32,000 bases of DNA. Source: Candidatus Lokiarchaeum ossiferum (GTDB taxonomy: Archaea > Asgardarchaeota > Lokiarchaeia > Sigyniarchaeales > Promethearchaeaceae). The notes beneath the pieces are model-generated. The model saw nothing but the letters and a program-made list of their open reading frames with translations. It did not search any database and was not told the origin of the DNA. The DNA is taken from the NCBI GenBank assembly GCA_025839675.1, contig CP104013.1, positions 5,670,001-5,702,000 on the forward strand. The letters run 5' to 3'. The first letter of the stretch is position 1. Every line of letters starts with the position of its first letter. Shown in pieces: positions 9,806-28,001 of this stretch. Made by a program: the position numbers and the translations under genes.

Positions 9806-10155
9806 TTATATTTTTAAAATAATTGCCATTTCTTTCCCAAACCGGTCTCGATAATCATAAAATCCCATTTTTGAATAAAATTTATGTGTCGCTACATTTT
9901 TAGGTTGATATCCAACCGCGATACGAGTACATTCAGGTAAAGTCGTCATTAGATCGATGAGTTTTTTTAGTGCAATTACTCCCAATCCCTTTCGTTGATA
10001 TTTTTTATCTATCATTATCCGATAAATCCAATAACTGTCTAATTCTTCCTTGATTGAATTAAACATGGCAAATCCGATCATATTGTAATCTGAATTGATT
10101 GCAAAGGGCTTTAATGTGGGTTCAAATTTGGATTGGAGGATTGAAATGGCATCGA
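9806..10155 (-). pseudogene. GNAT N-acetyltransferase (diamine/spermidine-acetyltransferase-like), C-terminal ~116 codons, 5'-truncated
   Basis: The acetyl-CoA motif A is present (YRIMIDKKYQRKGLGVIALKKLI) with GYQPKNVATHKFYSKMGF downstream. The frame stays open upstream of the track's ATG (VDAISILQSKFEPTLKPFAINSDYN-MIGFAMF) and ends at a TGA at 10156-10158, where repeat R_A1 begins. About 40 N-terminal residues are missing. Confidence 0.8.
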
Positions 10156-10157
10156 CT

Positions 10158-10205
10158 CAATGTCGCATTTCTTTCGCTTTTCACAATAATAATAGAAAAT
10201 GGAAA
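10158..10205. repeat. direct repeat R_A, copy 1
   Basis: AATGTCGCATTTCTTTCGCTTTTCACAATAATA is identical over 33 nt to 12072-12104. About 14 further nt are similar (..GAAAATGGAA..). Confidence 0.9.
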
Positions 10206-10213
10206 ATAAAGTC

Positions 10214-10546
10214 TTAAAATTCATATTTTTTTTCATCTTCTTCTAGTAATTGTTCATCATTATAATTGTCTAAAATTTTCATGTATTCTTCTGAAAATTC
10301 TCTACTATACTTTCTTGGATCATAATCATCTATTTCAAGTGCAATAGATGCTTTTTTACTTATTTCTTTTAAAATAACTTTATTACTCTTAATTTCCTTT
10401 ATGAATAAATCCCATTCGCAACCCAAATGAGGACATTTTAATTCCATATCTTCTATAATTTCTCGCTGAAATTCTTCTTCATTGAAAATAATTTCCCCTT
10501 GACAAACAGGGCAGATTCCTGTAAATTGGCTCATTTTGATAAACAC
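10214..10546 (-). CDS. small zinc-ribbon-like acidic protein (cassette 1 cargo)
   Basis: 110 aa from GTG 10546, or 106 aa from ATG 10534. It has a C-x2-C ... C-x4-C arrangement (CPVCQGE...KCPHLGCEW) and a very acidic C terminus. It lies between R_A1 and R_B1. Confidence 0.5.
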   Translation of the reverse strand: MFIKMSQFTGICPVCQGEIIFNEEEFQREIIEDMELKCPHLGCEWDLFIKEIKSNKVILKEISKKASIALEIDDYDPRKYSREFSEEYMKILDNYNDEQLLEEDEKKYEF

Positions 10547-10736
10547 TCATTTCTTTTTTTTCAATACTAAAACTTTTAGGAAAATTAAAGAAAATTTGAA
10601 ACCCTTTGCAATATTTCTCTCTCTGTTTCTTTTTTGTAATTGATCCTTCATTAAACAAGAATGATCATCTATTAAGATATTCAAACTTGATAAATATTGT
10701 CTAATTCTCAAAGTGAGTATCTAAATTTATCAAATA

Positions 10737-10893
10737 ATAATTTTTTCCTTCTTTAACTTAATCAATCGTGCTATATCTTTTCACTTCTTTACTTTATACC
10801 ATTTTTACATCACAAAATACTTTTTTGTCATATAAATTTAAACTTCTATAATTTCATTTATTACTTAGAAACTCAAGAGAATTAGATATGTAT
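10737..10893. repeat. direct repeat R_B, copy 1 (promoter and 5' end of the 82-aa gene, decayed)
   Basis: The core 10798-10893 aligns colinearly (96 nt) with 12756-12851. The first 24 nt (ACCATTTTTACATCACAAAATACT) and the last 15 nt (GAATTAGATATGTAT) are identical. Weaker similarity of roughly two thirds runs ~60 nt leftwards, where minus-strand translation gives MV*SKEVKRYSTID*VKEGK against MVENNNKKRNITIDLGKEGK in copy 2. Confidence 0.8.
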
Positions 10894-11216
10894 GAGTAAA
10901 GGAGAATAAAAAGAAGAAACATACAAGGAAGAACGGTTTTTGGAATCTTTCTTTGAAGCATTAATTGGAACAGTCTGTTTCGATTCCAATATTGATAGAT
11001 CAATATACTTCATCAATTTATTTATCTTTAATTTGCTAATAATACTTATTAGTTTTCAACCTCAAATGTTGTATTACTGAGTATTCAAAATGAACATTAC
11101 ACTGGGATAAAAAAGATCCAATGTTCAAACCCAATCCCTGTTTTGAGTGAATTATGGATGGAAAAATTATACGATTATCCAGAATATTCATTCTGAGATG
11201 AAATAATTTGAAAAAT
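10890..11216. repeat. direct repeat R_C, copy 1 (3' end of RNase III-like gene plus ~185 nt downstream); gene fragment is a pseudogene
   Basis: About 327 nt align with 16239-16564 at roughly 80-85% identity by eye. Plus-strand translation gives MSKGE*KEETYKEERFLESFFEALIGTVCFDSNIDRS. This includes the RNase III EALIGA-type motif but has no upstream two thirds of the gene. Confidence 0.85.
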
Positions 11217-11345
11217 ATTGTGTATGTTAAGCAACTCTTTGATAATCCCATAATAATCGCAATCAAACACCAATTATAATGTTTCGATAATTAGTACGTG
11301 AGATTTTCACAGTATATATTTAAACTCAAAATAGAAATATTAGGC

Positions 11346-11693
11346 ATGATAAAAGATTTTTGGCAAATCACATCAATGTGCTGGAATGATGAACACACGG
11401 ATATCGTAATTCATGATGTTGAGTATGATGATAAGGATCAAGCTGATTTGCAATTTAAGATCATTCAAGAATTTGAGAAGGCAAATAATCCTAAATATCT
11501 CGCTTCACACATGGAAAAAGTGTTCTATTGTGAAATCTGTCAAAAGTACTATTTACAATACATCAGCAGAGAAATTATATTGAATTATAAAGGATTCAAT
11601 ATCCCTATTGTGTATTGTAAACATAATTCTATGGATGAGGTTTTGGAATTATTTGGAAAGAAATTGAACGAATATATGTTTGAGATGCCATAA
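11346..11693 (+). CDS. hypothetical protein
   Basis: The ORF track gives 11298 (GTG); the first ATG is at 11346 (MIKDFWQITSMCW...). It contains C-x2-C (CEICQ) and a later lone CKH. No recognised domain. Confidence 0.4.
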   Translation: MIKDFWQITSMCWNDEHTDIVIHDVEYDDKDQADLQFKIIQEFEKANNPKYLASHMEKVFYCEICQKYYLQYISREIILNYKGFNIPIVYCKHNSMDEVLELFGKKLNEYMFEMP

Positions 11694-11942
11694 TGCTTCC
11701 TAGCATTCTGATTTTTTTTGTTGATAAAAATGAGTACATTCCAAAAATTTGTCAAGCACTTGCTCTTATATTTAAAAGATCTTATTCACGTAAAGATTGA
11801 AGATTCTAATTTGAGGACATCCAATGCTATTGATTGAATTTCTCTTCCAAACTTGATCTTTCTTTGAGTGGATGTATTGATGATGCTCCTATCTTTAATC
11901 GTTGCGATCTGCATTATTTTCAAATTTATATTTGTTTTACTA

Positions 11943-12035
11943 GGCAAATGTATTCTAAACTAATTGGAACACTTCATATTTCCATTGAACTCCATAATTC
12001 GCCTTTCCTACATTCCGAAATGTCAGATTATGATC
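11943..12035 (-). pseudogene. detached N-terminal fragment of the GNAT gene, with in-frame TAG
   Basis: Minus-strand translation gives LTFRNVGKANYGVQWKYEVFQLV*NTFA. This matches the N-terminal consensus I recall for this GNAT subfamily (I-T-L-R-x-I-x-K-D-N-W ... L-K-V-x3-Q-K-N-F-V-A). That is the part missing from 9806-10155. Assignment is by eye only. Confidence 0.45.
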
Positions 12036-12071
12036 ACTCGGAAACCAAAAATTTTGCGAACCCCCCGATGT

Positions 12072-12118
12072 AATGTCGCATTTCTTTCGCTTTTCACAAT
12101 AATACTGGAAAATGGAAT
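12072..12118. repeat. direct repeat R_A, copy 2
   Basis: See R_A copy 1. The 33-nt identical core is at 12072-12104. Confidence 0.9.
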
Positions 12119-12141
12119 TAAATCTATTGAAAATAAATGAT

Positions 12142-12489
12142 TTATTTTGAATTTATACATTCAGCTAAATAATTTAAAATTTTAACTGCTATTTGCTTTT
12201 TTCTAGCGTTTATTTCTTGTATCATGAAGTAATTGACCACTATGTTGAATGAATTTTCTATAAATTCTTCAATTTCAATTATTTCAAAGTTTCTGAACCT
12301 TTTTGAAATGAAATGATCAGATATTATATCCTTCAAAATTTTTCCATATGCGATCTCAATTTCTGTTTCATTTTTTTCCAAGAATACCGTTTCCCAGTCT
12401 ATTTTTAGAATATCAGTAGTCATTTGGACAAAATCAAAATACTTTTCAATTTTTTTGATTTTTTCAGGATCTACTTTTCGAAAATTCAT
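12142..12489 (-). CDS. hypothetical protein (cassette 2 cargo, distal gene)
   Basis: The track ORF runs 12142-12579. I prefer ATG 12489 (MNFRKVDPEKIKKIEKYF...), which removes the overlap with the upstream 82-aa ORF and leaves a 22-nt spacer. Helical and acidic, with no recognised domain. Confidence 0.45.
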   Translation of the reverse strand: MNFRKVDPEKIKKIEKYFDFVQMTTDILKIDWETVFLEKNETEIEIAYGKILKDIISDHFISKRFRNFEIIEIEEFIENSFNIVVNYFMIQEINARKKQIAVKILNYLAECINSK

Positions 12490-12511
12490 TTCTGAAACTC
12501 CAAAACAGCTT

Positions 12512-12760
12512 TCATGAAAATTGAAGTAATTCCTGCAGCTCACAGTCATATTTCTCAAAATATTTCTGGTATTTTTCAACGTAGGTTTTTTCTGTAATAA
12601 GTCTTACATTATACAATATTAAAATACAGTTGAGACATTCAAGCTTAACTGGCATAGGCCAACTTTCAAATGGAGAATCTCGGTCAATCTCATAATTCAT
12701 TTTTCCTTCTTTACCTAAATCAATGGTAATGTTTCGTTTTTTGTTATTGTTTTCTACCAT
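12512..12760 (-). CDS. hypothetical 82-aa protein (cassette 2 cargo, proximal gene)
   Basis: ATG start at 12760 inside R_B2. A decayed copy of its N terminus is visible in R_B1, which supports it being, or having been, a real gene. Confidence 0.5.
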   Translation of the reverse strand: MVENNNKKRNITIDLGKEGKMNYEIDRDSPFESWPMPVKLECLNCILILYNVRLITEKTYVEKYQKYFEKYDCELQELLQFS

Positions 12761-12851
12761 TTTTACATCACAAAATACTATTTTGTCCTCTTCATTTAAA
12801 GGTCTACAAATTCATCTTTTGCTGGGAATTTCATTGGAATTAGATATGTAT
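12695..12851. repeat. direct repeat R_B, copy 2
   Basis: See R_B copy 1. It lies in the divergent region between the 82-aa gene (-) and the 538-aa HEPN gene (+). Confidence 0.8.
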
Positions 12852-12875
12852 TTATTTTTGAAAACAATTAAATAA

Positions 12876-14492
12876 ATGAAAAAAATGGAATTAGACAAAA
12901 TCATCAAGGATCCAGAATTGAAGCATAAATTCTATCAGATTATTGATTCTATTCTTATTTCAGGGATGAAATTTCTGAAGGCAGCCATAAATTCTAAAGA
13001 ATTCTCAATGGCGGAACAAAATTTCGATGGCATGGATTATTATAATTCTCTTCTCTATAGGAAGAAATTAGTCCTTAGCATAACAACTAATCCAAAAGAT
13101 GAGAATTCTTCCAGCTCAAATTTGATTTCTATTATCTCTCTCTCTTTAAGCGGACTAATTAAAATATTAAGGGAATATAAAACAGATCCAAAAAATAATT
13201 CTAATTGGAGTTTTTTAATTGAATACAATTTATTACCAGAAGAACTAACTACATTCTCCCAACCTCGAAAAATTTTCTTTTCCCACCTAATTATGCGATG
13301 TTTTGATCTAATTTTTGAACCTGCATGCATGAACCAAAGTGATCTTGATATCTTATCACTTTTTCAAGATTTATCTTATAATTTTTCCGATTTAGAATCT
13401 TCAATTGAAGAAATAATCGATCTAGAATTATCCCACGAATGTATTCTTGAATATTATTATTTTTTTTATGGGATTGGTGTAAATGGGGACATAAAAATCT
13501 TTAATCAAGAGTTAAAACAAAAAATTGTCTATCCTACGGATAAAGATCGGGAACTTTTAAGTCGAGATCTTGGAATTCCTCGGGATATTAAAGTCCATAA
13601 TCGCCAATCTGACTATGAATCAGATAGCTTACTGAGGAACACAACAGGATGGATTCACTCTTCTGTTCGAGTAAAATTGTCGTCTTTGGATAATTCTGAT
13701 GTAAGAAAATCTCCCCATTTAAAACCTCCAGAATTTAATGAAGAAGGATTACGATTACTTGGATTTACAGGTGCAAACGTTCGATTTTATTGTAGAACTT
13801 CTGCAAATTCAAAAATTAATTATTCCATCGACATTCATAATGGATATTGCTCTTCAGGTTCTGGAGGGATAGTTCCAAGATGGATTAATGACACTATTGT
13901 TCACAAATGGCATTTTGACACATCCATAACTTTTAATTACGAAATGATCTCCTTTCTTAGTCAATTTGTTGAAAATCGTTTTAATCAACGTAACAACGCA
14001 TCATTTGAAACAATTTTCGGCAGATTTTATCGGTTTACCAATTTTACCCGGTTTTTTGACAAAATTATTGAATCTTCAATTATTTTTGAGGTCTTATTTC
14101 CAAATAGAGAAAGTTATGCCAAGAAACAGAAGTTAGCTAACAGAATTTCAAATATTCTATCCAAGAGTCCAGATCAAAAGCAAGTCATCCAAAATTTCGT
14201 TGAAAAAATATATGAAGCAAGAAATAAAATCATTCATGAAGGAGAATTTAACTTAAGATCAGATTTCTCTGAGTTTATTTCTTTATCTAAGGCATCCCAA
14301 TGTCTTTATGATGTTCTTCGTTTATGTATCCTGCGATTTGTCGATTTTGACACTGAAAAACTTCTGATCAATAATGATGATAGAGTAAAAATTGCTGATA
14401 AGTCTCCTAATTTGGAAGAACCTCATTTCTTTAAAGTGGCTCTTCAAGAATTTTGGAATTCTTATCCTTCCAAATTGAAAGATCAAAACTAA
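12876..14492 (+). CDS. large HEPN-domain protein (C-terminal R-N-x3-H; ApeA-like architecture suspected)
   Basis: 538 aa. The C-terminal helical domain carries VEKIYEARNKIIHEGEF, a canonical HEPN R-[N]-x3-H followed by G. It is preceded by a beta-rich middle region (VRFYCRTSANSKINYSIDIHNGY...WHFDTSITFNY) and a helical N-terminal region. Confidence 0.6.
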   Translation: MKKMELDKIIKDPELKHKFYQIIDSILISGMKFLKAAINSKEFSMAEQNFDGMDYYNSLLYRKKLVLSITTNPKDENSSSSNLISIISLSLSGLIKILREYKTDPKNNSNWSFLIEYNLLPEELTTFSQPRKIFFSHLIMRCFDLIFEPACMNQSDLDILSLFQDLSYNFSDLESSIEEIIDLELSHECILEYYYFFYGIGVNGDIKIFNQELKQKIVYPTDKDRELLSRDLGIPRDIKVHNRQSDYESDSLLRNTTGWIHSSVRVKLSSLDNSDVRKSPHLKPPEFNEEGLRLLGFTGANVRFYCRTSANSKINYSIDIHNGYCSSGSGGIVPRWINDTIVHKWHFDTSITFNYEMISFLSQFVENRFNQRNNASFETIFGRFYRFTNFTRFFDKIIESSIIFEVLFPNRESYAKKQKLANRISNILSKSPDQKQVIQNFVEKIYEARNKIIHEGEFNLRSDFSEFISLSKASQCLYDVLRLCILRFVDFDTEKLLINNDDRVKIADKSPNLEEPHFFKVALQEFWNSYPSKLKDQN

Positions 14493-14648
14493 CAAATCTA
14501 GATTATCGAACTCGAAAAATGATTTAGAAGAATAAAAATTAAAATCCAAAAAAGGAGCCATGGGTAGTTATACAAATATCTCAAATAATATATTATTTTG
14601 AATGTACCTTTAATAATTAAAACAAAGACAAAATTAGGGAATAAAATT

Positions 14649-15422
14649 ATGAGTTTTCATGACGAATTGGAATTACTGGTTGGGGAGCATCTCTGGCGTA
14701 TTGATAATTTACGAATTAATTTGACTAATATGGGTGAAAATTACAATAAATTTGTTAAAAATGTGGAAAAATCTTGTTTAACTTCGATTTTACCAAAGAA
14801 AAAGAAGAATTCTCTTTTTAAAAAGAAAAAAAGAATTTTTAAAAAAACAATCCAACCTTTAACAATTGAAAATTATAGACAATTCACACAAGATCATTCA
14901 AAACAAGATATTTTTGAAGAAATTTATGAAGCAAAAATGAATTATATATTAAAATATCCTAATCATTTGATTGAACATAGTATGGATAATCTTCCAATAA
15001 ATAACATTATTTACGAAATTGGATTTATATATTCCATTTCTATATTTGAATCTTTTAATCATGCCTTTTTTAAGTTATTACAATCAAGAAGTGAAGATTT
15101 TAAGAAAAAAACAAGAAAAATTCAAAAAAGGAATCTTACAAATATTGATAATTTTGCAAAAATCTTGTTGAAGTATGGCAATCTTTCCTTATCTGATTTC
15201 ATTGCTTGGGGAAAATTAAGGCTGTATTACTACATCAGAAATTTAATCGTTCATACAGGTGGTGTTATTGATATGAATTTTGGTGAAAGATTTCCTCACT
15301 ACAATAAGAATGTGAATGAAAAATTTAAGATGAGTTATCTTTTATTTGAAAACCAGATATATATTATTTGCAAATATTTTCTTTTCATACAGGAATTAAA
15401 TTTGGAAGAGAATAGGAAGTAA
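14649..15422 (+). CDS. HEPN-domain protein (R-N-x3-H)
   Basis: The track ORF starts at TTG 14598; the first ATG is at 14649 (MSFHDELELL). The C-terminal third carries LRLYYYIRNLIVHTGGVID, again R-N-x3-H with G two residues after the H. The linker is Lys-rich. Confidence 0.55.
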   Translation: MSFHDELELLVGEHLWRIDNLRINLTNMGENYNKFVKNVEKSCLTSILPKKKKNSLFKKKKRIFKKTIQPLTIENYRQFTQDHSKQDIFEEIYEAKMNYILKYPNHLIEHSMDNLPINNIIYEIGFIYSISIFESFNHAFFKLLQSRSEDFKKKTRKIQKRNLTNIDNFAKILLKYGNLSLSDFIAWGKLRLYYYIRNLIVHTGGVIDMNFGERFPHYNKNVNEKFKMSYLLFENQIYIICKYFLFIQELNLEENRK

Positions 15423-15425
15423 AAT

Positions 15426-15978
15426 CTACTGTTTCATTATTTTTTTTCTTTGTTCTTGCGTTAGAATATCAGTATGCGATCCAAATCTGTACCACGCTGT
15501 TGTCTTTTTTAAAGAAAATGCTTTGGAAAAAGAAACATCTCGAGAAACTTCATATACGGTATTTTTTTCACGAAAAATTTTCAAAATTAGTATATGCTTT
15601 TCTTTCAAGTTTAATATTTTAGTTTTGTCTTCTAAAAAAAGAAAATTTACCCCAATTCTTCTTTCAATCTTCAATTCTTTAATATCCTCAAATGTTTGAG
15701 CTAATGGTAAAAAATTTGGGATTGGCTCTACGTAGTTTTTAAGAAGATTGGTTATGGTATCTTCAATTTGACCAACATTGCTGATAGAAAAAAACTGATA
15801 TGTATTTTCTTCTTTCTCTTCAACACCAAAAACAAGATATCCTTCATTTTGATCGCTTGAGTATAAGCCGATTGAATTTAAGATCGCGATTACATCTTTG
15901 ATAAATTCGTACTTATATTTATCAATTTTGAGATCAAGTGTTTTTTTGTAATCAAGGAGGTATTGATTATGAATTTAC
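15426..15978 (-). pseudogene. AlbA_2/Schlafen-like domain protein lacking a start codon
   Basis: The frame is open for ~184 codons: IHNQYLLDYKKTLDLKIDKYKYEFIKDVIAILNSIGLYSSDQNEGYLVFGVEEKEE...WYRFGSHTDILTQEQ. No ATG/GTG/TTG occurs until TTG 15674. The sequence parallels the N-terminal domain of the 583-aa protein at 24007-25758 (VDFKEF..FLRDVVSFANTDETGIILYGV..FWIRGSGSKKQITFNE). Confidence 0.6.
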
Positions 15979-15982
15979 AAAT

Positions 15983-16381
15983 ATGGAATTATTAAGTCAA
16001 GCACTAACTTCAAAAGGGTATTCAAATGAAAATGGAAATTGTCTTTTTAGAGATAGCCTATCCTTATTTGGCGATGAAATTCATAAAATATATTGGCTTT
16101 ATGAAGGGATTAAGCTTGGATTATCAGAAAGAGGAGAAATATCTAAATACAGAGATTCCTGGATAAATCATGAAGCTCAAGTTGAGGAAGTACGACATCT
16201 TTTTTTAGACATGAATATCAAGCCAGAATACTTATTTCGTATGAGTAAAGGAGAATTAAAAAAAGAAACATACAAATAAGAACGGTTTTTGGAAACCTTC
16301 TTTGAAGTATTAATTGGAGCAGTCTATCTAGATTCAAATTTTGATAGATCAATAAATGTCATCAAATATATTTATCTTTAA
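15983..16381 (+). pseudogene. mini-RNase III-like protein (no dsRBD) interrupted by in-frame TAA at 16277-16279
   Basis: MELLSQALTSKGYSNENGN..RDSLSLFGDEI corresponds to the RNase III signature N-E-R-L-E-F-L-G-D, with the two Glu replaced by D and S. After ETYK-TAA the same frame continues ERFLETFFEVLIGAVYLDSNFD, the second catalytic-Glu motif. The paralogous copy at 10890 has GAA where this copy has TAA. Confidence 0.65.
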
Positions 16382-16564: not shown

Positions 16565-16804
16565 CCCTAAATCATTAATCAATAATAGTTCTTTTAATTG
16601 ATTGAACAAAGAACTTAGGGGGATTTTAGAAGATCCATACAAATCCAAAATATCTTTACTATATCTCCTAGTTATAATTTGGATAATAATTGTCACTTCT
16701 TATGATAGTAATTGAGATGATCATCCAACAAATTAGTGTATTAAAAAGAAATAAAGTCGATAAGGGAAAAAAAGGATAGTAAACAAAAAAAATTGGTATT
16801 ATCA

Positions 16805-17275
16805 ATGCAAATACAAGAGACAAAACTTTGGAATCATTTAAATGATGGAAGGACAAAATTGGAGAAGATTCTTGCTATTAATATTTTACAAATAACTCCC
16901 AGTTTGTTGAAAAGATCAAAACTAATAAGGGATACCTTTCCGCATTTCACATTGCACGATGAAAATCATCTTATCAAAGTAATATATATTATGGGAATTT
17001 TGCTTGAGGATCATATTCTAAATGAGCTGAATCCAATTGAAATATATCTTCTAATTTTAAGTGCTCTGTTTCATGATCAAGGGATGGTTGTAGAAGATCA
17101 AGAAAAACACTCAATTCAGAATTCGATTGAGTATATTAATTCAGTAGAAGTTTGGAAAGAAAATAATCATAACTTAAAATTATCAGAAATTGAAAGAGAT
17201 TATAAATTTTTAATAGAATATCAAAAAGATATCTCTCCAAAAATTGAAGATGTCTTATATTTTTCACATTTTTAG
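16805..17275 (+). CDS. HD-domain phosphohydrolase, N-terminal half (ends at in-frame TAG)
   Basis: FPHFTLHDENHLIKV and LSALFHDQGMVV provide the H...HD motifs. The ORF stops at TAG 17273-17275, in the same frame as the next ORF. The track start TTG 16793 is possible; the first ATG is at 16805. Confidence 0.65.
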   Translation: MQIQETKLWNHLNDGRTKLEKILAINILQITPSLLKRSKLIRDTFPHFTLHDENHLIKVIYIMGILLEDHILNELNPIEIYLLILSALFHDQGMVVEDQEKHSIQNSIEYINSVEVWKENNHNLKLSEIERDYKFLIEYQKDISPKIEDVLYFSHF

Positions 17276-17329
17276 AATTTTATTCGAATAAGACATGGAG
17301 AACGGGTAAAAAAAGTAATATGGGATGAG

Positions 17330-19870
17330 ATGATCTTAAAAGATCCATTTTACATTATTGAAGGTTGTGATATTAGGGCACTATTAGCGAAAATTTGTAT
17401 TTCTCATTCAAAAAAGGCCTCCGATTTAAACAATCAAAAAGATTATCCATATGATATTCAAATTGGGCATTTCCAAATCAATTCAGTTTTTATTGGAATT
17501 CTTCTTCGATTAGCTGATATCTTAGATTTTGATAGAGATAGGACACCTAAAATTATTTGGGATACAATTTCAATTTCTGATACAAAATCCATCAAAGAAT
17601 GGAAAAAACATCTTTCAGTAAATGGATGGAGTATCAATTCTGAAAGGGTTAGGTATTCTTGTGAATGTGACCATCCAGACTATCAAAAAGCAGTATATGA
17701 ATTGATGGAATGGATTCGAATCGAACTTGTCCAATGTAATATTCTTATTCAAAATTTCCCTGCGGATTATTCAAAATATCAATTCAAAATCCCACTCCAA
17801 GTAGATAATTGTAGAATATTTCCAAAAAATGACTCATATATTTATCATGATCTAGTATTTGAAATTAATAAGAAGAAAATAATCGATCTATTTCTAACCG
17901 ACCAATTGTATAAAGATCCTTCTCTGTGCATCCGAGAACTGATCCAAAACTCCTTAGATGCTTTGGAAATGAGAAGGTTATTTTTCTTAAGTGAATCTGG
18001 AGCTATTTGGGAACAGGGGAAAATTGAACTTAAACATTATTTTGATGATGACGGAAATGAAATTCTTGAATGCGAAGATAATGGAATTGGTATGGATGAA
18101 AATGAAATACTAAACTATTTAGTAAAAATTGGTCAAGGATATTATCAATCCTATGAATTCTCAAAAATAAACCATATTTTCAAGAAAAAAGGGTTTGAAT
18201 TCAATCCAATTGCTCAATTTGGAATCGGTTTTCTTGCATGTTTTATGATTGGCAATAGGATTCAAATAACTACTCGAAAATCATATGGAAGCAATAATGC
18301 GCAGATTCCATTGCAAGTCGAAATTGATGGGATAATAAACAGAATTGTAATAAGGAAATTATCAGAAGATATTGAAATTGGTACAAAAGTAAAAATATTT
18401 TGCAAGCAAAAACAACTTTATTACCATCCAAGCTTAGAAATAATCAAATTATGTACTACAATTCTCAGATATGTACGAGGAACTAATTTTTGGATTTATT
18501 CTGAGTGTTTTATTCCAGAAATTGCTAAAAAAGTTTCACTTCCACCAGGAATAAAATATCATAAAACTCATCTTCAAAAAGCAAATATCGAGCAAATTAA
18601 AATCATCGAGCAAGACTTTTGTGAAATAAATTCGAATCTGGAAGGAAAAGTATATGAAACCTTTTTAATTAATGGAGAAAACAATTTTGTTTTAGAAAAT
18701 GAAGAAGCAAAGTGGATTTTTGATGACAAAGGTCCTATATTGGTCGATTCTGAAAATGAAAAAAAAATACTTTATAAATTTTACGACCATAACGTGCTGA
18801 TGCAGAATAAAATTCTGTGTTTTGATGGAATTTTAGTTGCTGGTTCTCCAGATGGATATTCGTATAGAGGAAAAGCTATTTTCCCTCCTAGTACTAGTAG
18901 CTGTATCATGAATATTAAAAATTCACTGAAAACACAATTAACCCCTAGGAGATTTATTGATGAAAATGCAATAATCAGCAAAAATCCACGATTACAGTAC
19001 ATAATTGAATGTCATAATATCGCTGAAGGTTTAATATGGGAAAAAATAATTAGAAATGCCACTTCTCGACCTAAAATGCTTTGGAAACTTGTATTTATCT
19101 ATGGATTTGATTTAAAAAATATTAGAAAAGAAATTTTATGGGAATATCTCTATATTCCAGCTTTGGATGATAAAAATAAATTAAATTGGATAAAATTGAA
19201 AGAAATTATTATAGAAGGCATAGAAAATGTATCTGTTAGCAAAGGAAATCACTATGTTCGCTTTTACTCGTCCAAATATAAGTATGATTTTCCACATAAG
19301 AAAGAGTACTATTCAGTAATTTCAAATGATCCTAATAATACTCTTCTATGGCTTATAATGGGTTTTATGAAGCTATCGTATGATGTAAGTGGATTTATAT
19401 ATAGAATGACAGATGATTTTGATAAAAAGAACATTATTAGCATATCAGATTCCTGTTATAGAAGTAAAACAAAATTGCAAATGTTTTTCCCTCGCTCAAT
19501 AATCCTTTTTTGTAGTGAATGGCCTATCGAAACTGATTTTAGATCCTCTCTTGCAAATGTTTCTCACCAATTAATTAAGAAGATCCAAGAAATTCGTTAT
19601 AAAGAGAATTTAACAATAGGAGAAAAGATCGTTGTTTCTCTTGTAGAATTTTTGACAAGAACACAAGTTATAAAGATCCTGAAGTTGAATCACCCAAAAC
19701 TTACAGTTGAGTTCAAAGAAATAGGCATTCAGTTCAAAATTTTCGAAGAATCCCTAAGTCCGGAATTTAAACCTCCATACAAAATATTAACACGGGAATG
19801 CACAGTTTTGGAAATCACACAAGAACATTTCTATTCCTGGGCAGAGTTGAAAAATGAAGAAATGGTCTGA
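17330..19870 (+). CDS. HD-domain C-terminal half fused to GHKL (Hsp90/sacsin/MORC-like) ATPase and ~500-aa unknown C-terminal region
   Basis: The 18 in-frame codons between the TAG and ATG 17330 read NFIRIRHGERVKKVIWDE. Then LLRLADILDFDRDRTP completes the HD fold. The GHKL motifs follow: N-box CIRELIQNSLDAL, G1 CEDNGIGMDENE and G2 IAQFGIGFLACFMIG. Confidence 0.7.
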   Translation: MILKDPFYIIEGCDIRALLAKICISHSKKASDLNNQKDYPYDIQIGHFQINSVFIGILLRLADILDFDRDRTPKIIWDTISISDTKSIKEWKKHLSVNGWSINSERVRYSCECDHPDYQKAVYELMEWIRIELVQCNILIQNFPADYSKYQFKIPLQVDNCRIFPKNDSYIYHDLVFEINKKKIIDLFLTDQLYKDPSLCIRELIQNSLDALEMRRLFFLSESGAIWEQGKIELKHYFDDDGNEILECEDNGIGMDENEILNYLVKIGQGYYQSYEFSKINHIFKKKGFEFNPIAQFGIGFLACFMIGNRIQITTRKSYGSNNAQIPLQVEIDGIINRIVIRKLSEDIEIGTKVKIFCKQKQLYYHPSLEIIKLCTTILRYVRGTNFWIYSECFIPEIAKKVSLPPGIKYHKTHLQKANIEQIKIIEQDFCEINSNLEGKVYETFLINGENNFVLENEEAKWIFDDKGPILVDSENEKKILYKFYDHNVLMQNKILCFDGILVAGSPDGYSYRGKAIFPPSTSSCIMNIKNSLKTQLTPRRFIDENAIISKNPRLQYIIECHNIAEGLIWEKIIRNATSRPKMLWKLVFIYGFDLKNIRKEILWEYLYIPALDDKNKLNWIKLKEIIIEGIENVSVSKGNHYVRFYSSKYKYDFPHKKEYYSVISNDPNNTLLWLIMGFMKLSYDVSGFIYRMTDDFDKKNIISISDSCYRSKTKLQMFFPRSIILFCSEWPIETDFRSSLANVSHQLIKKIQEIRYKENLTIGEKIVVSLVEFLTRTQVIKILKLNHPKLTVEFKEIGIQFKIFEESLSPEFKPPYKILTRECTVLEITQEHFYSWAELKNEEMV

Positions 19871-20025: not shown

Positions 20026-21189
20026 CTATGCTAATAAGGAATTAACTTCTTCTTGGTGTTTGAAGTAGATTTCAGAGTGTTTCTCGTCCTTTTTCATCGT
20101 TTTGATCAAAATTTTTGGAGAAAACGGAATTATGTTGCATAAGTCAGAACCAAACAAATAGATGGCATAAGCATTTACTCTTAAACTATCAAATTTCTTA
20201 TCAAGAGATTTATCAACAAGTATTTTTTCCAAAATTATTTTTAATTTATCTTTATCCACAAAACTAAGAAGAAAAAATAGATTATCCCCTGGTCTCTCCT
20301 TCTTAAAATCTAACATCCAAATCCTTGATATTATTATCTTCCATTGTTCAAAAATAATTTTATTCGCAATTTCACTAAAATTTTTTTCTATTAGTTCTCT
20401 AATTTTATGATTGTATGCAAAAATTACTGCTGATAGTTGATCAAGCAATATATCAATTCCATTAAGAAAGTTTTTCTGAATTAGAAAATTAATGATAACT
20501 CCTAATAGAGGTGAAATCAGAATTCTTGGGTGATTGATCAAAAAGGAAAATGAATCATAATCCAATTCATCATCTGAATTTAATAATTTTTCCAATACCT
20601 TTAATATTGAATTATAGCCGCATTCATTTCTTACATCGTACAAAAATTCATCATAATAGAAATTCGAAAATTCATCAGAATTATTGCTGTTTGATAAATT
20701 GCTAGATATAACTGGAAGTCCTTCATCATTACTCCATAAATCTGGATTGGCTAGCCATGTTTTTACATTAATAATACTATACAATGATTTCTTTTTGTAA
20801 TAGAAGAATAAAAAAACTGGCAAAGGTTGCTCATTCCAGTATTTCAATGTATGTAGATTTCTCTCAGATTTTGGTAATAAAAAATGAGCATAAGGAATTC
20901 GAGATGATTTTTGTCTAAAAAAAGTCTTACCAGATTTAATTTGAAAAATTGCCATTTCTCCCGTCAATCTCTCATCTTCATCAACAATTTTTACATAATA
21001 ATCTTCTCCATAATCATGTTCTAAAGGAATTTTATGCGAAATTAAGCCACAAACATTAATGAATTCTTCAAAAAATAATTCTCCATCCCGCATTGTTTTA
21101 TTATTTGAACGTACTTTTTTACTTGGCAAATCTTTTAGTTTTTCAAAAAATTTTTGTTGAACTTTGTTGACCATAAACACCCCCATCAC
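20026..21189 (-). CDS. DUF4365-like (PD-(D/E)xK nuclease-fold) N-terminal domain protein with helical-repeat C-terminal region
   Basis: 387 aa. GELFFEEFINVCGLISHKIPLEHDYGEDYYVKIVDEDERLTGEMAIFQIKSGKTFF and LKYWNEQPLPVFLFFYYKKKSLYSI follow the DUF4365 pattern as I recall it (G..gE..f...g.....D.GiD....tG....vQvKs ... yw...lPv.lv.yd). The start is ambiguous (GTG 21189, ATG 21186 or ATG 21174). Confidence 0.55.
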   Translation of the reverse strand: MMGVFMVNKVQQKFFEKLKDLPSKKVRSNNKTMRDGELFFEEFINVCGLISHKIPLEHDYGEDYYVKIVDEDERLTGEMAIFQIKSGKTFFRQKSSRIPYAHFLLPKSERNLHTLKYWNEQPLPVFLFFYYKKKSLYSIINVKTWLANPDLWSNDEGLPVISSNLSNSNNSDEFSNFYYDEFLYDVRNECGYNSILKVLEKLLNSDDELDYDSFSFLINHPRILISPLLGVIINFLIQKNFLNGIDILLDQLSAVIFAYNHKIRELIEKNFSEIANKIIFEQWKIIISRIWMLDFKKERPGDNLFFLLSFVDKDKLKIILEKILVDKSLDKKFDSLRVNAYAIYLFGSDLCNIIPFSPKILIKTMKKDEKHSEIYFKHQEEVNSLLA

Positions 21190-21819: not shown

Positions 21820-23316
21820 TTATTTCCAAAAAGGAAATAAATCAAAAATAAAATGGAATATTTCTACTATCCGTCCTTCATCAGTTTTATATTTTGAAAA
21901 GTAATATTTTTTAGATGAACCTTGGATATTAAATTCTTCAAAAGTTCCAGGTATACTTAATCTATGATTTTCAATTAGTCTATTCTTATATGTTGTATCT
22001 ATCGAATTCAAATTTTCATTAATCATATAAAGGATACCTATTTTATCATTAAATCCCATGTTTCCAATTAATTCTTCAATCGGAGGATATTCTTTGAAGT
22101 TTCTAGGCCATATTTTAAATTCAAAAGAGATTCTAAACATATTATGAGATGTTTTAATATTTAGATCACATTTCGTTTTTTTTATAGTTTCTTTTTCTCT
22201 CTCAGAAATCCAATAATTTGAATGGAATTGATCTAAGAAATAATCTCTAAAATTCTCTTCCTTATATTGCTTATTGATGATTATTTCTTGCATTGTGGAA
22301 TTAAATTCAATCATGTTTTGAATGTCAATAGTTTTTCCAATTAATTTATCAATAAATGAAAGAGGTATATCTAATGAATAAGAATTAAAACTTGTAATGT
22401 ATTCTTTTTCTATTATTTCATTTCCATAAATACTTGAGAAGAATTCAGTCATAGCATACCTAGGTATATTATTCCAATATGATCCAGTATATTTAAATGT
22501 ATTATGTGCTTTTTTTGCAGCTGCTACAATAGATTGGTATAAAATTTTGTCATCAATGGAAGAATAAAGAGAATAACCCAAGGATTGAAATTTTGTCAGT
22601 TTATCTAAATTTCTTAGAATTTCTTGTCTTAAATTTTGATTTTTAGAAATTAGTGCTTTTTCAATATCTGAATTATTTTGAGAAATATTCAATATAAAAA
22701 TCCAAAGAGATATTGCATTTGGGTAAATCTGAATAATTTTTTTTTTTTTTAAGAAATTTGATAATCTTTTTATTGAAATGTTCAAACAATTTCTTGCAGT
22801 TTTACGATAAAAAGCATTTTCCATTGTATTTTTAAGATAATAACCAAAAAATTCTATTGAGAGACAATAACCATAACATACTAACGATCCTAAATATTGA
22901 TCAGTGAATCTTGAACCGAGGTTACTTAAATATCGATGAATTCTTGTAAAAAAAGTTTTTAAAATTGAAATATCAGATGGAACATTGAATAATTCCATAG
23001 TTTTAAACAAAATTAACATTTGTGCAATTAAATTATTACTATTCTTGAAATCATCAATGCTTTTTTGGTTTAATAGATATCCATAATAATAAGATGATAT
23101 ATTTTGACCAAAAAGACTTCCTAAATGATACAACCAATTTTGAATGCTCTTATGGTTTGGATCTTTTTTATAGAAATCATTTAAGAACAATAAAAAATTT
23201 CCAGAATCAACAAAATATTGCTTTACATGCTTCAATGGTTCTTTCTTTGATTCTTCATACTTTCTTAATCGATCGGAAAAATCCTTTATCCATAAATCCT
23301 TATAAATTGTGTCCAT
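21820..23316 (-). CDS. hypothetical 498-aa protein, partner of the minimal nucleotidyltransferase
   Basis: Long ORF whose ATG lies 17 nt inside the 3' end of the MNT gene. The N-terminal two thirds are helical and aromatic-rich, and the C-terminal region looks beta-rich. It contains an A14 coding tract (KKKK). No recognised domain. Confidence 0.6.
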   Translation of the reverse strand: MDTIYKDLWIKDFSDRLRKYEESKKEPLKHVKQYFVDSGNFLLFLNDFYKKDPNHKSIQNWLYHLGSLFGQNISSYYYGYLLNQKSIDDFKNSNNLIAQMLILFKTMELFNVPSDISILKTFFTRIHRYLSNLGSRFTDQYLGSLVCYGYCLSIEFFGYYLKNTMENAFYRKTARNCLNISIKRLSNFLKKKKIIQIYPNAISLWIFILNISQNNSDIEKALISKNQNLRQEILRNLDKLTKFQSLGYSLYSSIDDKILYQSIVAAAKKAHNTFKYTGSYWNNIPRYAMTEFFSSIYGNEIIEKEYITSFNSYSLDIPLSFIDKLIGKTIDIQNMIEFNSTMQEIIINKQYKEENFRDYFLDQFHSNYWISEREKETIKKTKCDLNIKTSHNMFRISFEFKIWPRNFKEYPPIEELIGNMGFNDKIGILYMINENLNSIDTTYKNRLIENHRLSIPGTFEEFNIQGSSKKYYFSKYKTDEGRIVEIFHFIFDLFPFWK

Positions 23317-23626
23317 TCCTAATTCTTCCTGAAATTATTCTATAACCTTTCTTTAAAGACTCATTTAGTTTACTTTTTTTCTGTATATTCGAATAAAATT
23401 CTTCTTCAGTTAAGCAAATTACATCTACATTTGATATATTCTTATTTTTAAAGATATTTTGGATCATTTTAATACGATCAAAAAATATTATTCTAATGAA
23501 GTAATTACTAACAACGATTAAATCAATATCTAAATTGGGATCAAGGAACTTTTTATTTACTTGAGATCCATGTAAAATAATCAATATTGGTTTCAATATA
23601 TTAAGATTTTCCAGAATTTTATTCAT
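23300..23626 (-). CDS. minimal nucleotidyltransferase (MNT, Pol-beta superfamily)
   Basis: 108 aa. LIILHGSQVNKKFLDPNLDIDLIVVS provides the G-S and D-x-D motifs, and NVDVICLTEEEF supplies the third acidic residue. Confidence 0.7.
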   Translation of the reverse strand: MNKILENLNILKPILIILHGSQVNKKFLDPNLDIDLIVVSNYFIRIIFFDRIKMIQNIFKNKNISNVDVICLTEEEFYSNIQKKSKLNESLKKGYRIISGRIRNGHNL

Positions 23627-24006: not shown

Positions 24007-25758
24007 TTAGAAGCCTGGGGTAGTAAAAAGTGGGAGACTTATGAGATGGCCTCTTTCTTTAAAAATTTGCTTAGTCATTAATGAATTATTATCTAAAGTT
24101 TCTTTTTTATTTAACTTATGATCTATTCTTTTTTTTGAACTTGAATCATAGATTTCTGAAATCCATCTTCCTTCAATTTTTGATAATTTAAGTGAATAAT
24201 GATTTATCTTCAGATAAGATATACCTTCAATAATTTTTAGGGGAAATAACTTCTGAAATTCATAAACATTATTTTCATACATGAATGAAATATGACTCCA
24301 TCTTTCCTTCTCAATGGAATCGCAAAACTGATGCTGAAAAGATTCAATCCATTCCTTCTCATTTTTGTGAGCCATTTCTGGACAAATTTGATCCCAAAGT
24401 TGGTTTAAAACTCCAATACGATGTAAAGACATTCCTTGAAACATTTTTTTATATAAATCTGGTTGTTCTGATTTAATATGATCCAATTTACGACCAATAT
24501 CATTCCAACTTTCGAATTTGAATTGTTCAAATATATTTTCTGTGATATCAACCCGCATTTCAACAATTTTGTCTTTATCATTCATTTGGAGATAATATTC
24601 ACCAGATCCAGTCTCAATACACAATGTAACTCCTCTAATGGCAAACATTTCTAAAATTTTATCATCTTGAAAGATTTGTTGGAGAATTTCTTGAAAATTT
24701 TGATTCCGTCTGTAAGCTTCGCTTATTTCATCAAAGTACAAGTAAAATCTCTCTAATTGGATCATTTCTTGAGTTTTTATAGAAAATTGGTTGTTGATAT
24801 AATTACATAACTCAAATTTAAACTGTAAATAATAATCTAAGATGAATTTTCCCTCCGCGTGAATTGTATTCTTTCCGATACTCCCATTTACTTTTGAGAT
24901 CTTTTCTGGATTATAGGATATACTTATATCAAAGTTTTTTTCATTTTCATTTTGAGAATAAAAAAGAAATTTAATTAAGGTTCGAGCTGATGTGAAGTAT
25001 CCAAATGTATTAGTTCCACTTGATTTACCTTCTTTTTCATCAATAGTTGTAGTTAAGTTTAAAAAATCTTGCAAATTAGATTTATGATTTCTAATAAATT
25101 CTGTTAATATTTTTAGTTGATTTGGATAATTTGGCCCCAAATCTTCATTTTTGGTAATGAAAGCTAAATCCATCAACTTCATGACTTGATTATATGCTCT
25201 AAATATTTCATTATTACTTTGTGTTTCATCATTCTGCAACTTTTTAATTTGTAGTAATTCATTGAAGGTTATTTGTTTCTTACTTCCGGATCCTCTAATC
25301 CAAAACTCATGTAAATCAACAGTTTTATTATGACATAGTTCCTTTTTATGATAAAGGGAGTATATTTTGTTTTTTGGTGTTTTTATTCTTACGATCGTAA
25401 TGAACCGAGAATTTTGAAAATAAATAGGTTGAACTTCAATATTATTTATTATGTTTGGTGAAATTCTTTCATTTAGGATATTTACAAGATGGGTTTGCAG
25501 CTTATCTCCATTAAATGAATCTTCAGTTTTCATTCCTACTATTTTTTTCTCCTTATCAGTAACTCCATAAAGAATGATTCCAGTCTCATCAGTATTTGCG
25601 AAGGAAACAACATCTCTTAGAAATTCATAAGAAAATGCATCATTAGCACTCAAAAATTCTTTGAAATCCACGCGATGGGATTCATTTCCAATATCATTAA
25701 GGAAATTTTCAATATCATCAATCTTAATTCTTTCAATCTCTTTGCTAAACAAGGTCAT
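24007..25758 (-). CDS. AlbA_2/Schlafen-like N-terminal domain protein with ~400-aa unknown C-terminal region
   Basis: 583 aa. NESHRVDFKEFLSANDAFSYEFLRDVVSFANTDETGIILYGVTDKEKKIVGMKT...ITIVRIKTPKNKIYSLY...FWIRGSGSKKQITFNELLQI matches the AlbA_2 (PF04326-type) pattern. It starts 20 nt after the OLD gene's stop. Confidence 0.65.
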   Translation of the reverse strand: MTLFSKEIERIKIDDIENFLNDIGNESHRVDFKEFLSANDAFSYEFLRDVVSFANTDETGIILYGVTDKEKKIVGMKTEDSFNGDKLQTHLVNILNERISPNIINNIEVQPIYFQNSRFITIVRIKTPKNKIYSLYHKKELCHNKTVDLHEFWIRGSGSKKQITFNELLQIKKLQNDETQSNNEIFRAYNQVMKLMDLAFITKNEDLGPNYPNQLKILTEFIRNHKSNLQDFLNLTTTIDEKEGKSSGTNTFGYFTSARTLIKFLFYSQNENEKNFDISISYNPEKISKVNGSIGKNTIHAEGKFILDYYLQFKFELCNYINNQFSIKTQEMIQLERFYLYFDEISEAYRRNQNFQEILQQIFQDDKILEMFAIRGVTLCIETGSGEYYLQMNDKDKIVEMRVDITENIFEQFKFESWNDIGRKLDHIKSEQPDLYKKMFQGMSLHRIGVLNQLWDQICPEMAHKNEKEWIESFQHQFCDSIEKERWSHISFMYENNVYEFQKLFPLKIIEGISYLKINHYSLKLSKIEGRWISEIYDSSSKKRIDHKLNKKETLDNNSLMTKQIFKERGHLISLPLFTTPGF

Positions 25759-25778: not shown

Positions 25779-28001
25779 TTAGTTGAGATTTAATTTTTGG
25801 GATATTTTGTCCAGTAATTTCTCTTTAACAAATCCTTTTTCCTGAATAATGCGATAGTAATTATCTTTTTCATATATGAAGCCAAATTTTTTTGAACATT
25901 CAGCAAAAACTCTGAGTTTCAATTCCTTCCCAGGAAATTCTTTCCATTCTTCCCCTTTTTTGATAATTAATTCGATTTCTTTAGCATATGTTGCAAATCT
26001 CTCTTTGTAGAATTGTTTATCCAACGAAATATGTTTATGTTTTGTGATAAAATCTTCAATGGTTTTCAAAAAGGAATCTACACGAGTTTCTTGACTTCTT
26101 GTTTCTCCCTCTTTGTTTTCCACAAACGTTTTCGATATTTTTTTTTTGTCTTTTTCACTGAAAACCTTTGGAAATTCGTTGAAAAAGAATTTTATTTGCT
26201 TCTTTCTGATCATCTGTTCATCAACAGCTGATTTGATAATTTGTTTTATTAATTCCAAAGTAGGTTCGATTACTAAGGGGTTACTTGAAGATTTTATCAT
26301 TTCTAAGAGAATTTCCGGATTCAGATACAAATTTTCAATTTCTCGAACCGGGAGAAGAAGAATCTTTTCTTGAATTTCTACTGCTCTATTCTTAAGGATC
26401 TCTGTATTTCCTTCATCATTATCGAGTATAATTAAAAATTTGAAGTTTTTATTGGTGAAATGTTGTATCAGTTTTGCATTTGCCCAATAATGTACATCTC
26501 GTTTACCTCCCAATTGCTGTAAGACTATTCGATTATCTTCCAATAACCCTGGGATGGCATTCTTGAAGAATTCAATATCATCCTTTCCTTCTACAAGTAT
26601 CATTCCGTTATTCATTAGATAATCTGATGGTTTAATGCCAAGATCTTGAAAGAGAATGTCTAAGTTTTCTTTGCTATCATTGAACACTTGAGTCACTTTA
26701 TCAACTCGTTTCACACGATGAATACTCCAGTCCTCCTCTGAATTGTCGATAAAATAGGGTGAATGGGTTGTGATTAGGACTTGGTATTTGCCAAGATTTT
26801 CTTTGATTATTGATAAAAGAATCTTTTGGAGTTGTGGATGGATGAAAAGTTCCGGTTCTTCAATCAGTAATATTCCATCTTCTTCAGTTTCCAAAATAAA
26901 GGCCAAAATAATAACTAGTTGCTGAATTCCTTTTCCAAGTTTGTCAAAAGTAAGTTTGTAATCAAGCTTCTTTTCTTTAAGATAAGGTATCGTAATTGGA
27001 AAATCTGAAATATGTCTATTAAGCTCTGAATTGTATTTAGGATCAAACAATGCATAATCGGGTTTTACTAAAAAATTTTGATTGATTTCTAGGAGACTTG
27101 GATAAAATCTAAACAAATAATTACATAATTTATCTAATTTTGACCTTTGATTAGTGTCATATTCTAAAATCAAAGTTGGAATTTTATTACCGGTTGCGTC
27201 TAAAGCCTTGATATCATTTGTCTCCTTTATTTTAGAAAAATGATTAAAAAATCTGTCTTCTTTAATACAACGCATTTTAGAATGAAAATTTACAATGGGT
27301 TTTAAGAAAAAATAAAGAAAAGGTTCCACTTTCAATATTTCAAAATAATTTTTATCATCTAACATATTTTTTTGAGAATTTGGAAAGCTTGTATGAAATA
27401 TATTTTCAGGTATATATCTCCATTCTTGATGTTTTTCAATTGTTTTTGCAACATGAGTTGGATTACTCAGGTCTAGAATTCTGAAACTGTAATTTGACCC
27501 CAAATTTTTTTTTTCACCAAATGAGTGAGAAAACCACTCATTTTGAAAGGAAACCTTCTTGATAAAAACTCTATTATTAGATCCTGGCATTAAAATTAAT
27601 TCGAATATAATATTTGCAAATGCTTCCTCGATTGTTAAGCTCTCTTTTTCATCATATTGCCTATTTTTATAAATTTTAAAAGATTCTGGATCTAAAATAT
27701 AGTCCTTCGCTCTCGATCTAAAGATGTGTTTAGAATTCTTCACAAAAAACTCCCTTAATTTCAATTTTTCAAACTTAAAATTAATGATGATTTTTGCCAA
27801 AGCTGGATTTTCATCAAACATGATAAATTTATGATTAAGGTTCTGGTTTGGTCTTATTTTTTCAAGAATTTTAAAAAAATTACTCTTACCAGCGTTATTT
27901 GGACCAATTATTACCCCTAATTCTCCAATATTCTCAAAAACTTGATGATCAAAACTGAGGAGGTTGAAGATTTCTACTCGATGCAAACGAGAAATTGTCA
28001 T
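25779..28001 (-). CDS. OLD-family ATP-dependent nuclease (ABC/AAA_15-type ATPase + Toprim)
   Basis: 740 aa. ATPase motifs are Walker A GPNNAGKS, signature-like KLGKGIQQLVIIL, Walker B ILLIEEPELFIHPQLQ and H-loop VLITTHSPYF. The Toprim core has its Glu in GMILVEGKDDIEFF and its DxD in FLIILDNDEG. A ~150-aa C-terminal extension follows. Confidence 0.8.
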   Translation of the reverse strand: MTISRLHRVEIFNLLSFDHQVFENIGELGVIIGPNNAGKSNFFKILEKIRPNQNLNHKFIMFDENPALAKIIINFKFEKLKLREFFVKNSKHIFRSRAKDYILDPESFKIYKNRQYDEKESLTIEEAFANIIFELILMPGSNNRVFIKKVSFQNEWFSHSFGEKKNLGSNYSFRILDLSNPTHVAKTIEKHQEWRYIPENIFHTSFPNSQKNMLDDKNYFEILKVEPFLYFFLKPIVNFHSKMRCIKEDRFFNHFSKIKETNDIKALDATGNKIPTLILEYDTNQRSKLDKLCNYLFRFYPSLLEINQNFLVKPDYALFDPKYNSELNRHISDFPITIPYLKEKKLDYKLTFDKLGKGIQQLVIILAFILETEEDGILLIEEPELFIHPQLQKILLSIIKENLGKYQVLITTHSPYFIDNSEEDWSIHRVKRVDKVTQVFNDSKENLDILFQDLGIKPSDYLMNNGMILVEGKDDIEFFKNAIPGLLEDNRIVLQQLGGKRDVHYWANAKLIQHFTNKNFKFLIILDNDEGNTEILKNRAVEIQEKILLLPVREIENLYLNPEILLEMIKSSSNPLVIEPTLELIKQIIKSAVDEQMIRKKQIKFFFNEFPKVFSEKDKKKISKTFVENKEGETRSQETRVDSFLKTIEDFITKHKHISLDKQFYKERFATYAKEIELIIKKGEEWKEFPGKELKLRVFAECSKKFGFIYEKDNYYRIIQEKGFVKEKLLDKISQKLNLN

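Follow-up and report, generated by a model that had tools for sequence, protein, structure and literature searches.

An HD-CE and Hsp90-like predicted conflict gene interrupted by a single in-frame TAG in an Asgard archaeon

Candidatus Lokiarchaeum ossiferum is an Asgard archaeon, and the subject of this analysis is a single gene in a 32,000-nucleotide stretch of its contig CP104013.1 (positions 5,670,001 to 5,702,000; hereafter the window, numbered from its first letter). The gene lies on the + strand at 16805-19870 and encodes a protein with an N-terminal HD-type domain, HD-CE, followed by an Hsp90-like ATPase, whose reading frame is interrupted by one in-frame TAG. The original prediction for this locus, made from the DNA letters, described a fusion of an HD phosphohydrolase with a GHKL ATPase of the Hsp90-sacsin-MORC kind, broken by one stop codon and set among defence genes. 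Here we establish the extent and domain composition of the gene, place it in a protein family, describe its neighbours and weigh the explanations for the stop codon, before turning to what the family may do.

A single gene interrupted at codon 157

The open reading frame (ORF) at 16793-17275 and the stop-free stretch at 17276-19870 share a frame, and the TAG at 17273-17275 is the only stop between them. Joined conceptually, they form a frame of 1021 codons that begins with the ATG at 16805, which lines up with the N-termini of the homologues in an alignment of 30 sequences, and in which the TAG is codon 157. A check of all six frames of the window found only one junction between two same-frame stop-free segments of at least 80 codons, namely this TAG; because the junction is unique in a window with a GC content of 29%, chance can be ruled out as the source of the adjoining frames. 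Codons 1-156 (16805..17272, + strand) encode a bundle of helices at the N-terminus and then HD-CE as far as its midpoint, with residues H51/D52/H55 and H90/D91, the TAG (17273..17275, +) is the sole lesion in the gene, and codons 158-1021 with the terminal TGA (17276..19870, +) have their first in-frame ATG at 17330. The annotation of the source genome lists two separate products, one of 156 aa (P0375) and one of 721 aa (P0001), the latter beginning at an ATG later than 17330. The original prediction had singled out the stretch from the TAG to the ATG at 17330, 18 codons long, as a conserved part of the HD fold, and these codons do carry two family-invariant residues, R161 and H164, together with the nearly invariant G165.

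The predicted phosphohydrolase domain HD-CE occupies residues 45-308 of the joined protein (16937..17728, +) and contains the TAG. Its Pfam model, PF24391, aligns across the TAG in a single continuous match (profile positions 1-261 of 263; E=2e-50) that scores 172.4 bits against a gathering cutoff of 27, while the related iHD-CE profile reaches only E=0.032 on the same joined protein. A match that spans the stop codon in this way bears out the proposal of one gene with a lone TAG inside its HD domain. All of the invariant residues of HD-CE are kept (H51, D52, H55, E79, H90, D91, N123, R161, H164, H201, N226, R235, D238 and D241), as is the metal-ligand pattern H...HD...D of the HD superfamily, a residue pattern that points to the active HD-CE form rather than the iHD-CE form. 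The metal ligands H...HD precede the TAG and R161, H164 and D238/D241 follow it; with ligands and conserved residues divided in this manner, neither fragment can be an active HD enzyme.

A separate structural model of residues 1-345 (predicted local distance difference test, pLDDT, 84.3) has as its nearest folds in the PDB the HD-type domains of PPX/GppA and of class I cyclic-nucleotide phosphodiesterases, with E>=0.13 throughout and template modelling (TM) scores of 0.25-0.35. On this model, HD-CE appears to be a divergent HD domain with no close relative among solved structures. SAMHD1 and the bacterial dGTPases that act in defence share with it the HD superfamily and the H...HD...D pattern but show no significant similarity to HD-CE in fold or in sequence.

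Downstream of HD-CE lies a Bergerat ATPase domain resembling the N-terminal domain of Hsp90 and HtpG (residues ~351-560; 17855..18484, +), recognised by HATPase_c_3 and by the HSP90 and HtpG models. The Pfam HATPase_c_3 match covers residues 376-500 (E=1.4e-8), and the Bergerat motifs are both kept and invariant in the family: E378/N382 in RELIQN, D425/G427/G429 in DNGIGM, G473/G475 in FGIGF, and T490. Both halves of the proposed fusion, HD and GHKL, thus survive profile searches, and the motifs on which it was built fall at residues 51 (HDENH), 89 (FHDQG), 236 (LADILDFDRDR), 377 (RELIQNSLDAL), 425 (DNGIGM) and 472 (FGIGF). Among the NCBIfam models, the HSP90-family model matches at E=3e-24 and the HtpG model at E=2e-21, in each case over the N-domain alone; the equivalog scores of 76-85 bits fall far below the cutoffs of 371 and 455, so the protein does not qualify as an orthologue of the HtpG chaperone (76 bits vs a cutoff of 371). 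When the family profile was compared with the sequences of the PDB, all 60 best matches were N-domains of the Hsp90 family (HtpG, Grp94 or Hsp90), the top one being HtpG at E=1e-16.

This affinity narrows the picture of the ATPase, which had been placed in a broad Hsp90-sacsin-MORC group and is Hsp90/HtpG-like rather than sacsin- or MORC-like. The sacsin SRR and MORC-paraMORC proteins share the GHKL fold, and HATPase_c_3 covers all of them, but the model for the N-terminal ATP-binding domain of sacsin, whose cutoff is 50 bits, gives only 14.9 bits, and neither the 60 best sequence matches nor the 50 best fold matches in the PDB include a structure of MORC, MutL or sacsin.

The remainder of the protein, residues 561-1021 (18485..19867, +), comprises a region that a fold search likens to the Hsp90 middle domain and a fast-diverging C-terminal region. 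The joined protein was modelled with AlphaFold2 at a mean pLDDT of 82.7 and a predicted TM score (pTM) of 0.74, and in a Foldseek search with the full model all 50 best PDB matches were HtpG, Hsp90/Hsc82, TRAP1 or GRP94, with 470-700 aligned columns and E-values down to 1.5e-13. Target-normalised TM scores reach 0.61, for N-M fragments of TRAP1, and represent an alignment at the level of domains rather than a residue-by-residue mapping. The model therefore suggests that the region after the ATPase is at least an Hsp90 middle domain, giving an N-M architecture, and, less certainly, that the Hsp90 C-terminal domain may have its counterpart in the final ~260 residues. What had been listed as some 500 aa of unknown sequence is in this way largely accounted for, the alignments extending over full Hsp90-family chaperones. 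Conservation falls from the enzymatic cores towards the C-terminal end: the ATPase domain has a mean pairwise identity of 57% within the family and HD-CE one of 49%, compared with 35% over residues 561-760 and 23% over residues 761-1021.

A widespread family with other disrupted members

A search of 5.8 billion proteins returned more than 1,120 relatives of the joined protein, and the best 120 of these are nearly all single uninterrupted proteins of 1,014-1,053 aa, which answers the concern that homologues might occur as two genes split at the same point. Clostridium, Peribacillus, Bacteroidota, Anaerolineae and Acidobacteriota are represented among them, as are many metagenomes, and some members of the family are archaeal. 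In one search the family comprised more than 1,100 clusters at 90% identity, and for the Hsp90-like part 2,291 representatives were found at E<=1e-10. The Lokiarchaeum protein is a divergent member, its closest homologues in the databases being only 35-36% identical, yet in an alignment with 29 homologues it is collinear from end to end and keeps every one of the 80 invariant columns. The full architecture of the family, with HD-CE, the Hsp90 N and M domains and a variable C-terminal region in that order, is therefore present in the joined protein. The family's reading frame is uninterrupted and that of the Lokiarchaeum copy is broken by TAG at codon 157; none of the more than 1,100 homologues has a stop or a split at this site. 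An intact homologue is found in about 70 of 80 loci from GTDB representative genomes. In a metagenome-assembled genome (MAG) of Methanosarcinales (L004), an intact homologue of 1,032 aa was found (match 10001-13054), which places the family in at least two archaeal lineages in addition to many bacterial phyla.

Family members have been disrupted independently elsewhere, at sites other than codon 157. An Alkaliphilus MAG (L003) carries a nonsense change of AAA to TAA, in frame at 702-704 and at about residue 188, and in a second locus (L087, 1566-6290) an IS240-type transposase is inserted at about residue 117. Frameshifts interrupt the gene in three further loci (L036, L037 and L065), and errors of MAG assembly may account for some of them. 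Of the five lesions, four lie inside HD-CE or at its end, and so does the Lokiarchaeum TAG. Of the short database entries that were inspected, one (P0241) is truncated by a contig end and another (P0247) is broken by an insertion sequence (IS).

The family is not new. HD-CE is a curated Pfam family in which "CE" stands for conflict effector, and its definition is traced to a 2023 paper by Nicastro, Burroughs, Iyer and Aravind (Nucleic Acids Res, doi 10.1093/nar/gkad879), who are also credited, according to a preprint that cites them, with the Calcineurin-CE family. The original prediction knew of no characterised system with the HD and GHKL combination; the curated status of its HD domain indicates that the architecture has already been described. 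The Lokiarchaeum protein resembles the conflict systems that combine HD-CE with an HSP90 module in having an N-terminal HD-CE domain, then an Hsp90-like ATPase and a middle domain, all in one polypeptide, and in having the same length as, and collinearity with, more than 1,100 homologues; it differs from them in its nonsense codon, its identity of at most 36% and its Asgard host. The combined architecture has reportedly been covered already by that published description, which is computational, and the Lokiarchaeum gene is an ordinary, disrupted member of a catalogued and widespread family, not a new kind of system.

Genes around the interrupted gene

To judge from its gene content, the window is a defence island, as the original prediction had supposed: profile matches in it include a HEPN_Apea protein, a DUF4365 protein, a Schlafen/AlbA_2 protein, an OLD/AriAB-like ATPase, a Pycsar-like pair and a GajB-like helicase. 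On the 5' side of the HD-CE gene lies a tandem pair of candidate HEPN RNases. The first (12876-14492, +) is an Apea-type protein of 538 aa with a HEPN_Apea match, its HEPN domain C-terminal and bearing the motif RNKIIH, and the second (14598-15422, +) is a protein of 274 aa that has no Pfam match and is a candidate HEPN protein by its Rx4H motif, RNLIVH. A short way upstream of the HD-CE gene is an ORF of 113 aa (15938-16279, +) that bears a weak likeness to the first half of an RNase III-like domain (PF14622, E=0.023, below threshold) and could represent either the remnant of a gene or a divergent mini-RNase III.

Downstream, the DUF4365 protein, identified by its profile match (20026-21189), is followed by a protein of 498 aa with no detectable domain (21820-23316, -) and by a minimal nucleotidyltransferase (MNT) of 108 aa (NTP_transf_2; 23300-23626, -) that overlaps the start of the 498-aa protein by 17 bases. 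This layout resembles that of MNT-HEPN pairs, with a partner that is unusually large and unrecognised. The Schlafen/AlbA_2 protein, also a profile match (583 aa; 24007-25758, -), comes directly after an OLD/AriAB-like ABC-ATPase(-Toprim) of 740 aa on the same strand (25779-28001, -; PADLOC AriAB, E=1e-26), and the two may form a two-gene defence module. Beyond them are a PycTM effector (29504-30034, +; PADLOC E=2e-21) and a PycC cyclase (30056-30769, -; PADLOC E=3e-20), which converge tail to tail, an arrangement that departs from the co-directional operon usual for Pycsar genes. A GajB-like UvrD helicase (30873-32000, -; PADLOC GajB, E=8e-36) has a frame that is open to the end of the window; the gene runs on past that end and is not truncated, and inside the window no GajA-type partner lies beside it. 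A neighbouring amidohydrolase has distant best matches that include Asgard archaea.

The original prediction had found the HEPN genes next door notable, given that sacsin also carries a HEPN domain. All flanking ORFs were clustered from the 80 loci of GTDB representative genomes, which span many phyla, and no conserved neighbour gene emerged: the largest cluster other than the family itself covers 10 of the 80 loci and reflects synteny among related Lachnospiraceae, and the contigs of the three closest relatives have no neighbour in common with the Lokiarchaeum window. A functional link to HEPN was thus rejected, there being no neighbour that recurs across the 80+ loci, and the adjacent HEPN genes are best seen as neighbours in the island and not as partners, which fits a single-gene system. 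When 132 ORFs flanking the gene in 15 phylogenetically diverse loci were scanned, defence genes (LmuB-like, mad2/3, type I methyltransferase, QatA and KAP NTPase) turned up side by side with housekeeping genes. The family gene has the character of a mobile module of one gene, solitary and located in defence islands at some loci but not at all of them.

Origin of the stop codon and predicted function

We consider the locus to be one stand-alone HD-CE and Hsp90-like predicted immune, or conflict, gene within an Asgard defence island, and one that has probably become a pseudogene through the TAG. The loss would be very recent, because nothing else in the gene has decayed. A recent nonsense mutation in a gene for a probably costly effector is the likeliest as well as the simplest reading of the TAG.

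The same singularity of the lesion serves the most serious alternative, in which the gene is intact in the organism and the TAG arose as an error of the consensus or of polishing, or represents a minority allele that was carried into the assembly of the enrichment culture; since the TAG is the sole lesion, either would look identical to a true mutation. A lone change of the substitution type in 1,021 codons, with all invariant residues kept, is what such an artefact would leave, and the genome is indeed a Nanopore assembly (flye) of an enrichment culture, polished with Pilon in four rounds. A close relative for comparison is lacking, the next best homologue being 36% identical, and a scan of metagenome DNA with the flanks of the TAG gave 0 matches. 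The errors that remain in Nanopore assemblies after short-read polishing, on the other hand, are mainly homopolymer indels and not substitutions, the annotation of the source genome carries the two pieces as separate products, and the independent disruptions of other family members demonstrate that lesions of this sort do occur. Single-base changes of the TAG would give TCG (Ser) or TTG (Leu). On balance, we find an intact gene behind a faulty base or a minority allele unlikely, although it is the alternative to be taken most seriously.

Programmed recoding, by which the TAG would be read through or decoded (by pyrrolysine, a suppressor tRNA or leaky termination) to give full-length protein at low and possibly regulated levels, draws on the perfect preservation of the frame on either side of the stop, on the use of TAG for pyrrolysine in some archaea and on the idea that low expression of a toxic effector might plausibly be a form of regulation. 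The original prediction had raised pyrrolysine as a point to check. Several results speak against recoding. In the 29 aligned homologues the residue opposite the TAG is Thr in 24, Ile in 3 (all of them among the closest relatives) and Ser in 2, and neither Lys nor any special residue occurs there; elsewhere in the window TAG serves as an ordinary stop, terminating 4 of 22 long ORFs and splitting no second gene; the 120 nt of RNA 3' of the TAG show no more tendency to fold than shuffled sequence does (z = -0.40); and, as set out above, no homologue has a stop at this site. The Lokiarchaeum genome paper does not mention pyrrolysine. We rejected pyrrolysine on the ordinary aligned residue, the normal use of TAG and the lack of RNA structure downstream, and we regard recoding in general as very improbable. 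Least probable of the alternatives is a genuine two-gene arrangement, in which the 156-aa fragment and a protein of ~846 aa starting at the ATG at 17330 would rebuild the enzyme, or the Hsp90-like part would work alone. An in-frame ATG only 18 codons past the TAG and the annotation of both pieces as genes speak for it, but the break lies within the HD-CE core and away from any domain boundary, the invariant R161 and H164 would be lost with the 18 codons, and no homologue is split at codon 157, the short entries that were checked having the other causes given above. A promoter or terminator signal between the pieces did not rise above background in a scan that used a bacterial consensus and is hence weak evidence for an archaeon. 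A protein search with the 156-aa fragment returned the fragment alone, an effect of the word-index prefilter. In the annotation, the 156-aa and 721-aa calls would be better merged and flagged as a single disrupted gene.

How the intact protein might work can be sketched from the order of its domains, the gradient of conservation, the solitary and patchy distribution of the gene and its partial association with defence islands. The N-terminal HD-CE domain would act as an HD-superfamily phosphohydrolase that is predicted to destroy nucleotides, and the Hsp90-like N-M module would serve as an ATP-driven conformational switch or sensor, comparable to the STAND NTPase of Avs and NLR proteins. A ligand derived from an invader would be recognised by the variable middle and C-terminal part, its binding would release, unmask or assemble the HD-CE domain, and pools of nucleotides or nucleic-acid precursors would then collapse and the infection abort. 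We count the drop in conservation from the enzymatic cores to the C-terminal end in favour of an immune sensor because such a drop is usual in immune sensors. The likeness to STAND/NLR-type sensors (Avs/AVAST and bNACHT) lies in the layout, with one solitary gene, at times located in a defence island, encoding an effector together with a switch of the NTPase type and a C-terminal region that evolves fast; the switch there is a P-loop STAND domain whereas here it has the GHKL/Hsp90 fold, so that the resemblance in function is suggested by analogy. Calcineurin-CE, HD-CE and PRTase-CE have reportedly been defined as predicted nucleotide-degrading immune effectors, and HSP90- and HSP70-related modules coupled to such effectors are said to be analogues of STAND and GTPase switches. 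The Hsp90, HtpG, TRAP1 and GRP94 chaperones share the Bergerat motifs and supply the best matches to the family in sequence (E=1e-16) and in N and M fold (E=1.5e-13), but they have no N-terminal effector domain, whereas the family protein has one in addition to its poorly conserved C-terminal region, and they are universal housekeeping proteins whereas the family gene is solitary and patchily distributed.

Several observations weigh against this interpretation. Literature searches found no experiments on any family member, and two eLife papers from the Aravind group make no mention of HD-CE; PDB searches by sequence and by fold found no solved structure of one, and PADLOC v2 returned 0 families at E<=1 for the joined protein. 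A PDB fold search with the model of residues 1-345 gave no significant neighbour, so no substrate can be inferred from the fold of HD-CE. Swapping of effectors was not seen at the depth covered, which took in the 150 representatives closest to the Hsp90-like module, with matches that mostly begin at residue 300-390: the ten with smaller offsets that were scanned comprised six with a truncated HD-CE domain and four with the Hsp90-like part only. The association with defence islands is, moreover, partial across the homologue loci.

A more far-reaching possibility is that the Hsp90-like module is a true immune sensor-switch and that the Asgard copy is nonetheless made at full length, through low-level readthrough of the TAG or in a heterogeneous population. 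We regard this combination as very improbable, but if it were true, a close archaeal relative of eukaryotes would have an effector that destroys nucleotides under the direct control of an ATPase with the Hsp90 fold. Such a protein might offer a deep precedent both for sacsin-like fusions of Hsp90 and for the part that Hsp90 plays in NLR maturation, in the innate immunity of eukaryotes. In itself, the Lokiarchaeum copy adds little beyond extending the family to an Asgard archaeon and supplying a further case of the recurrent inactivation of a probably costly effector. The family as a whole would be a good target for characterisation, as a predicted immune system of one protein in which the Hsp90 fold would take the place that a P-loop NTPase has as the switch in better-known systems.

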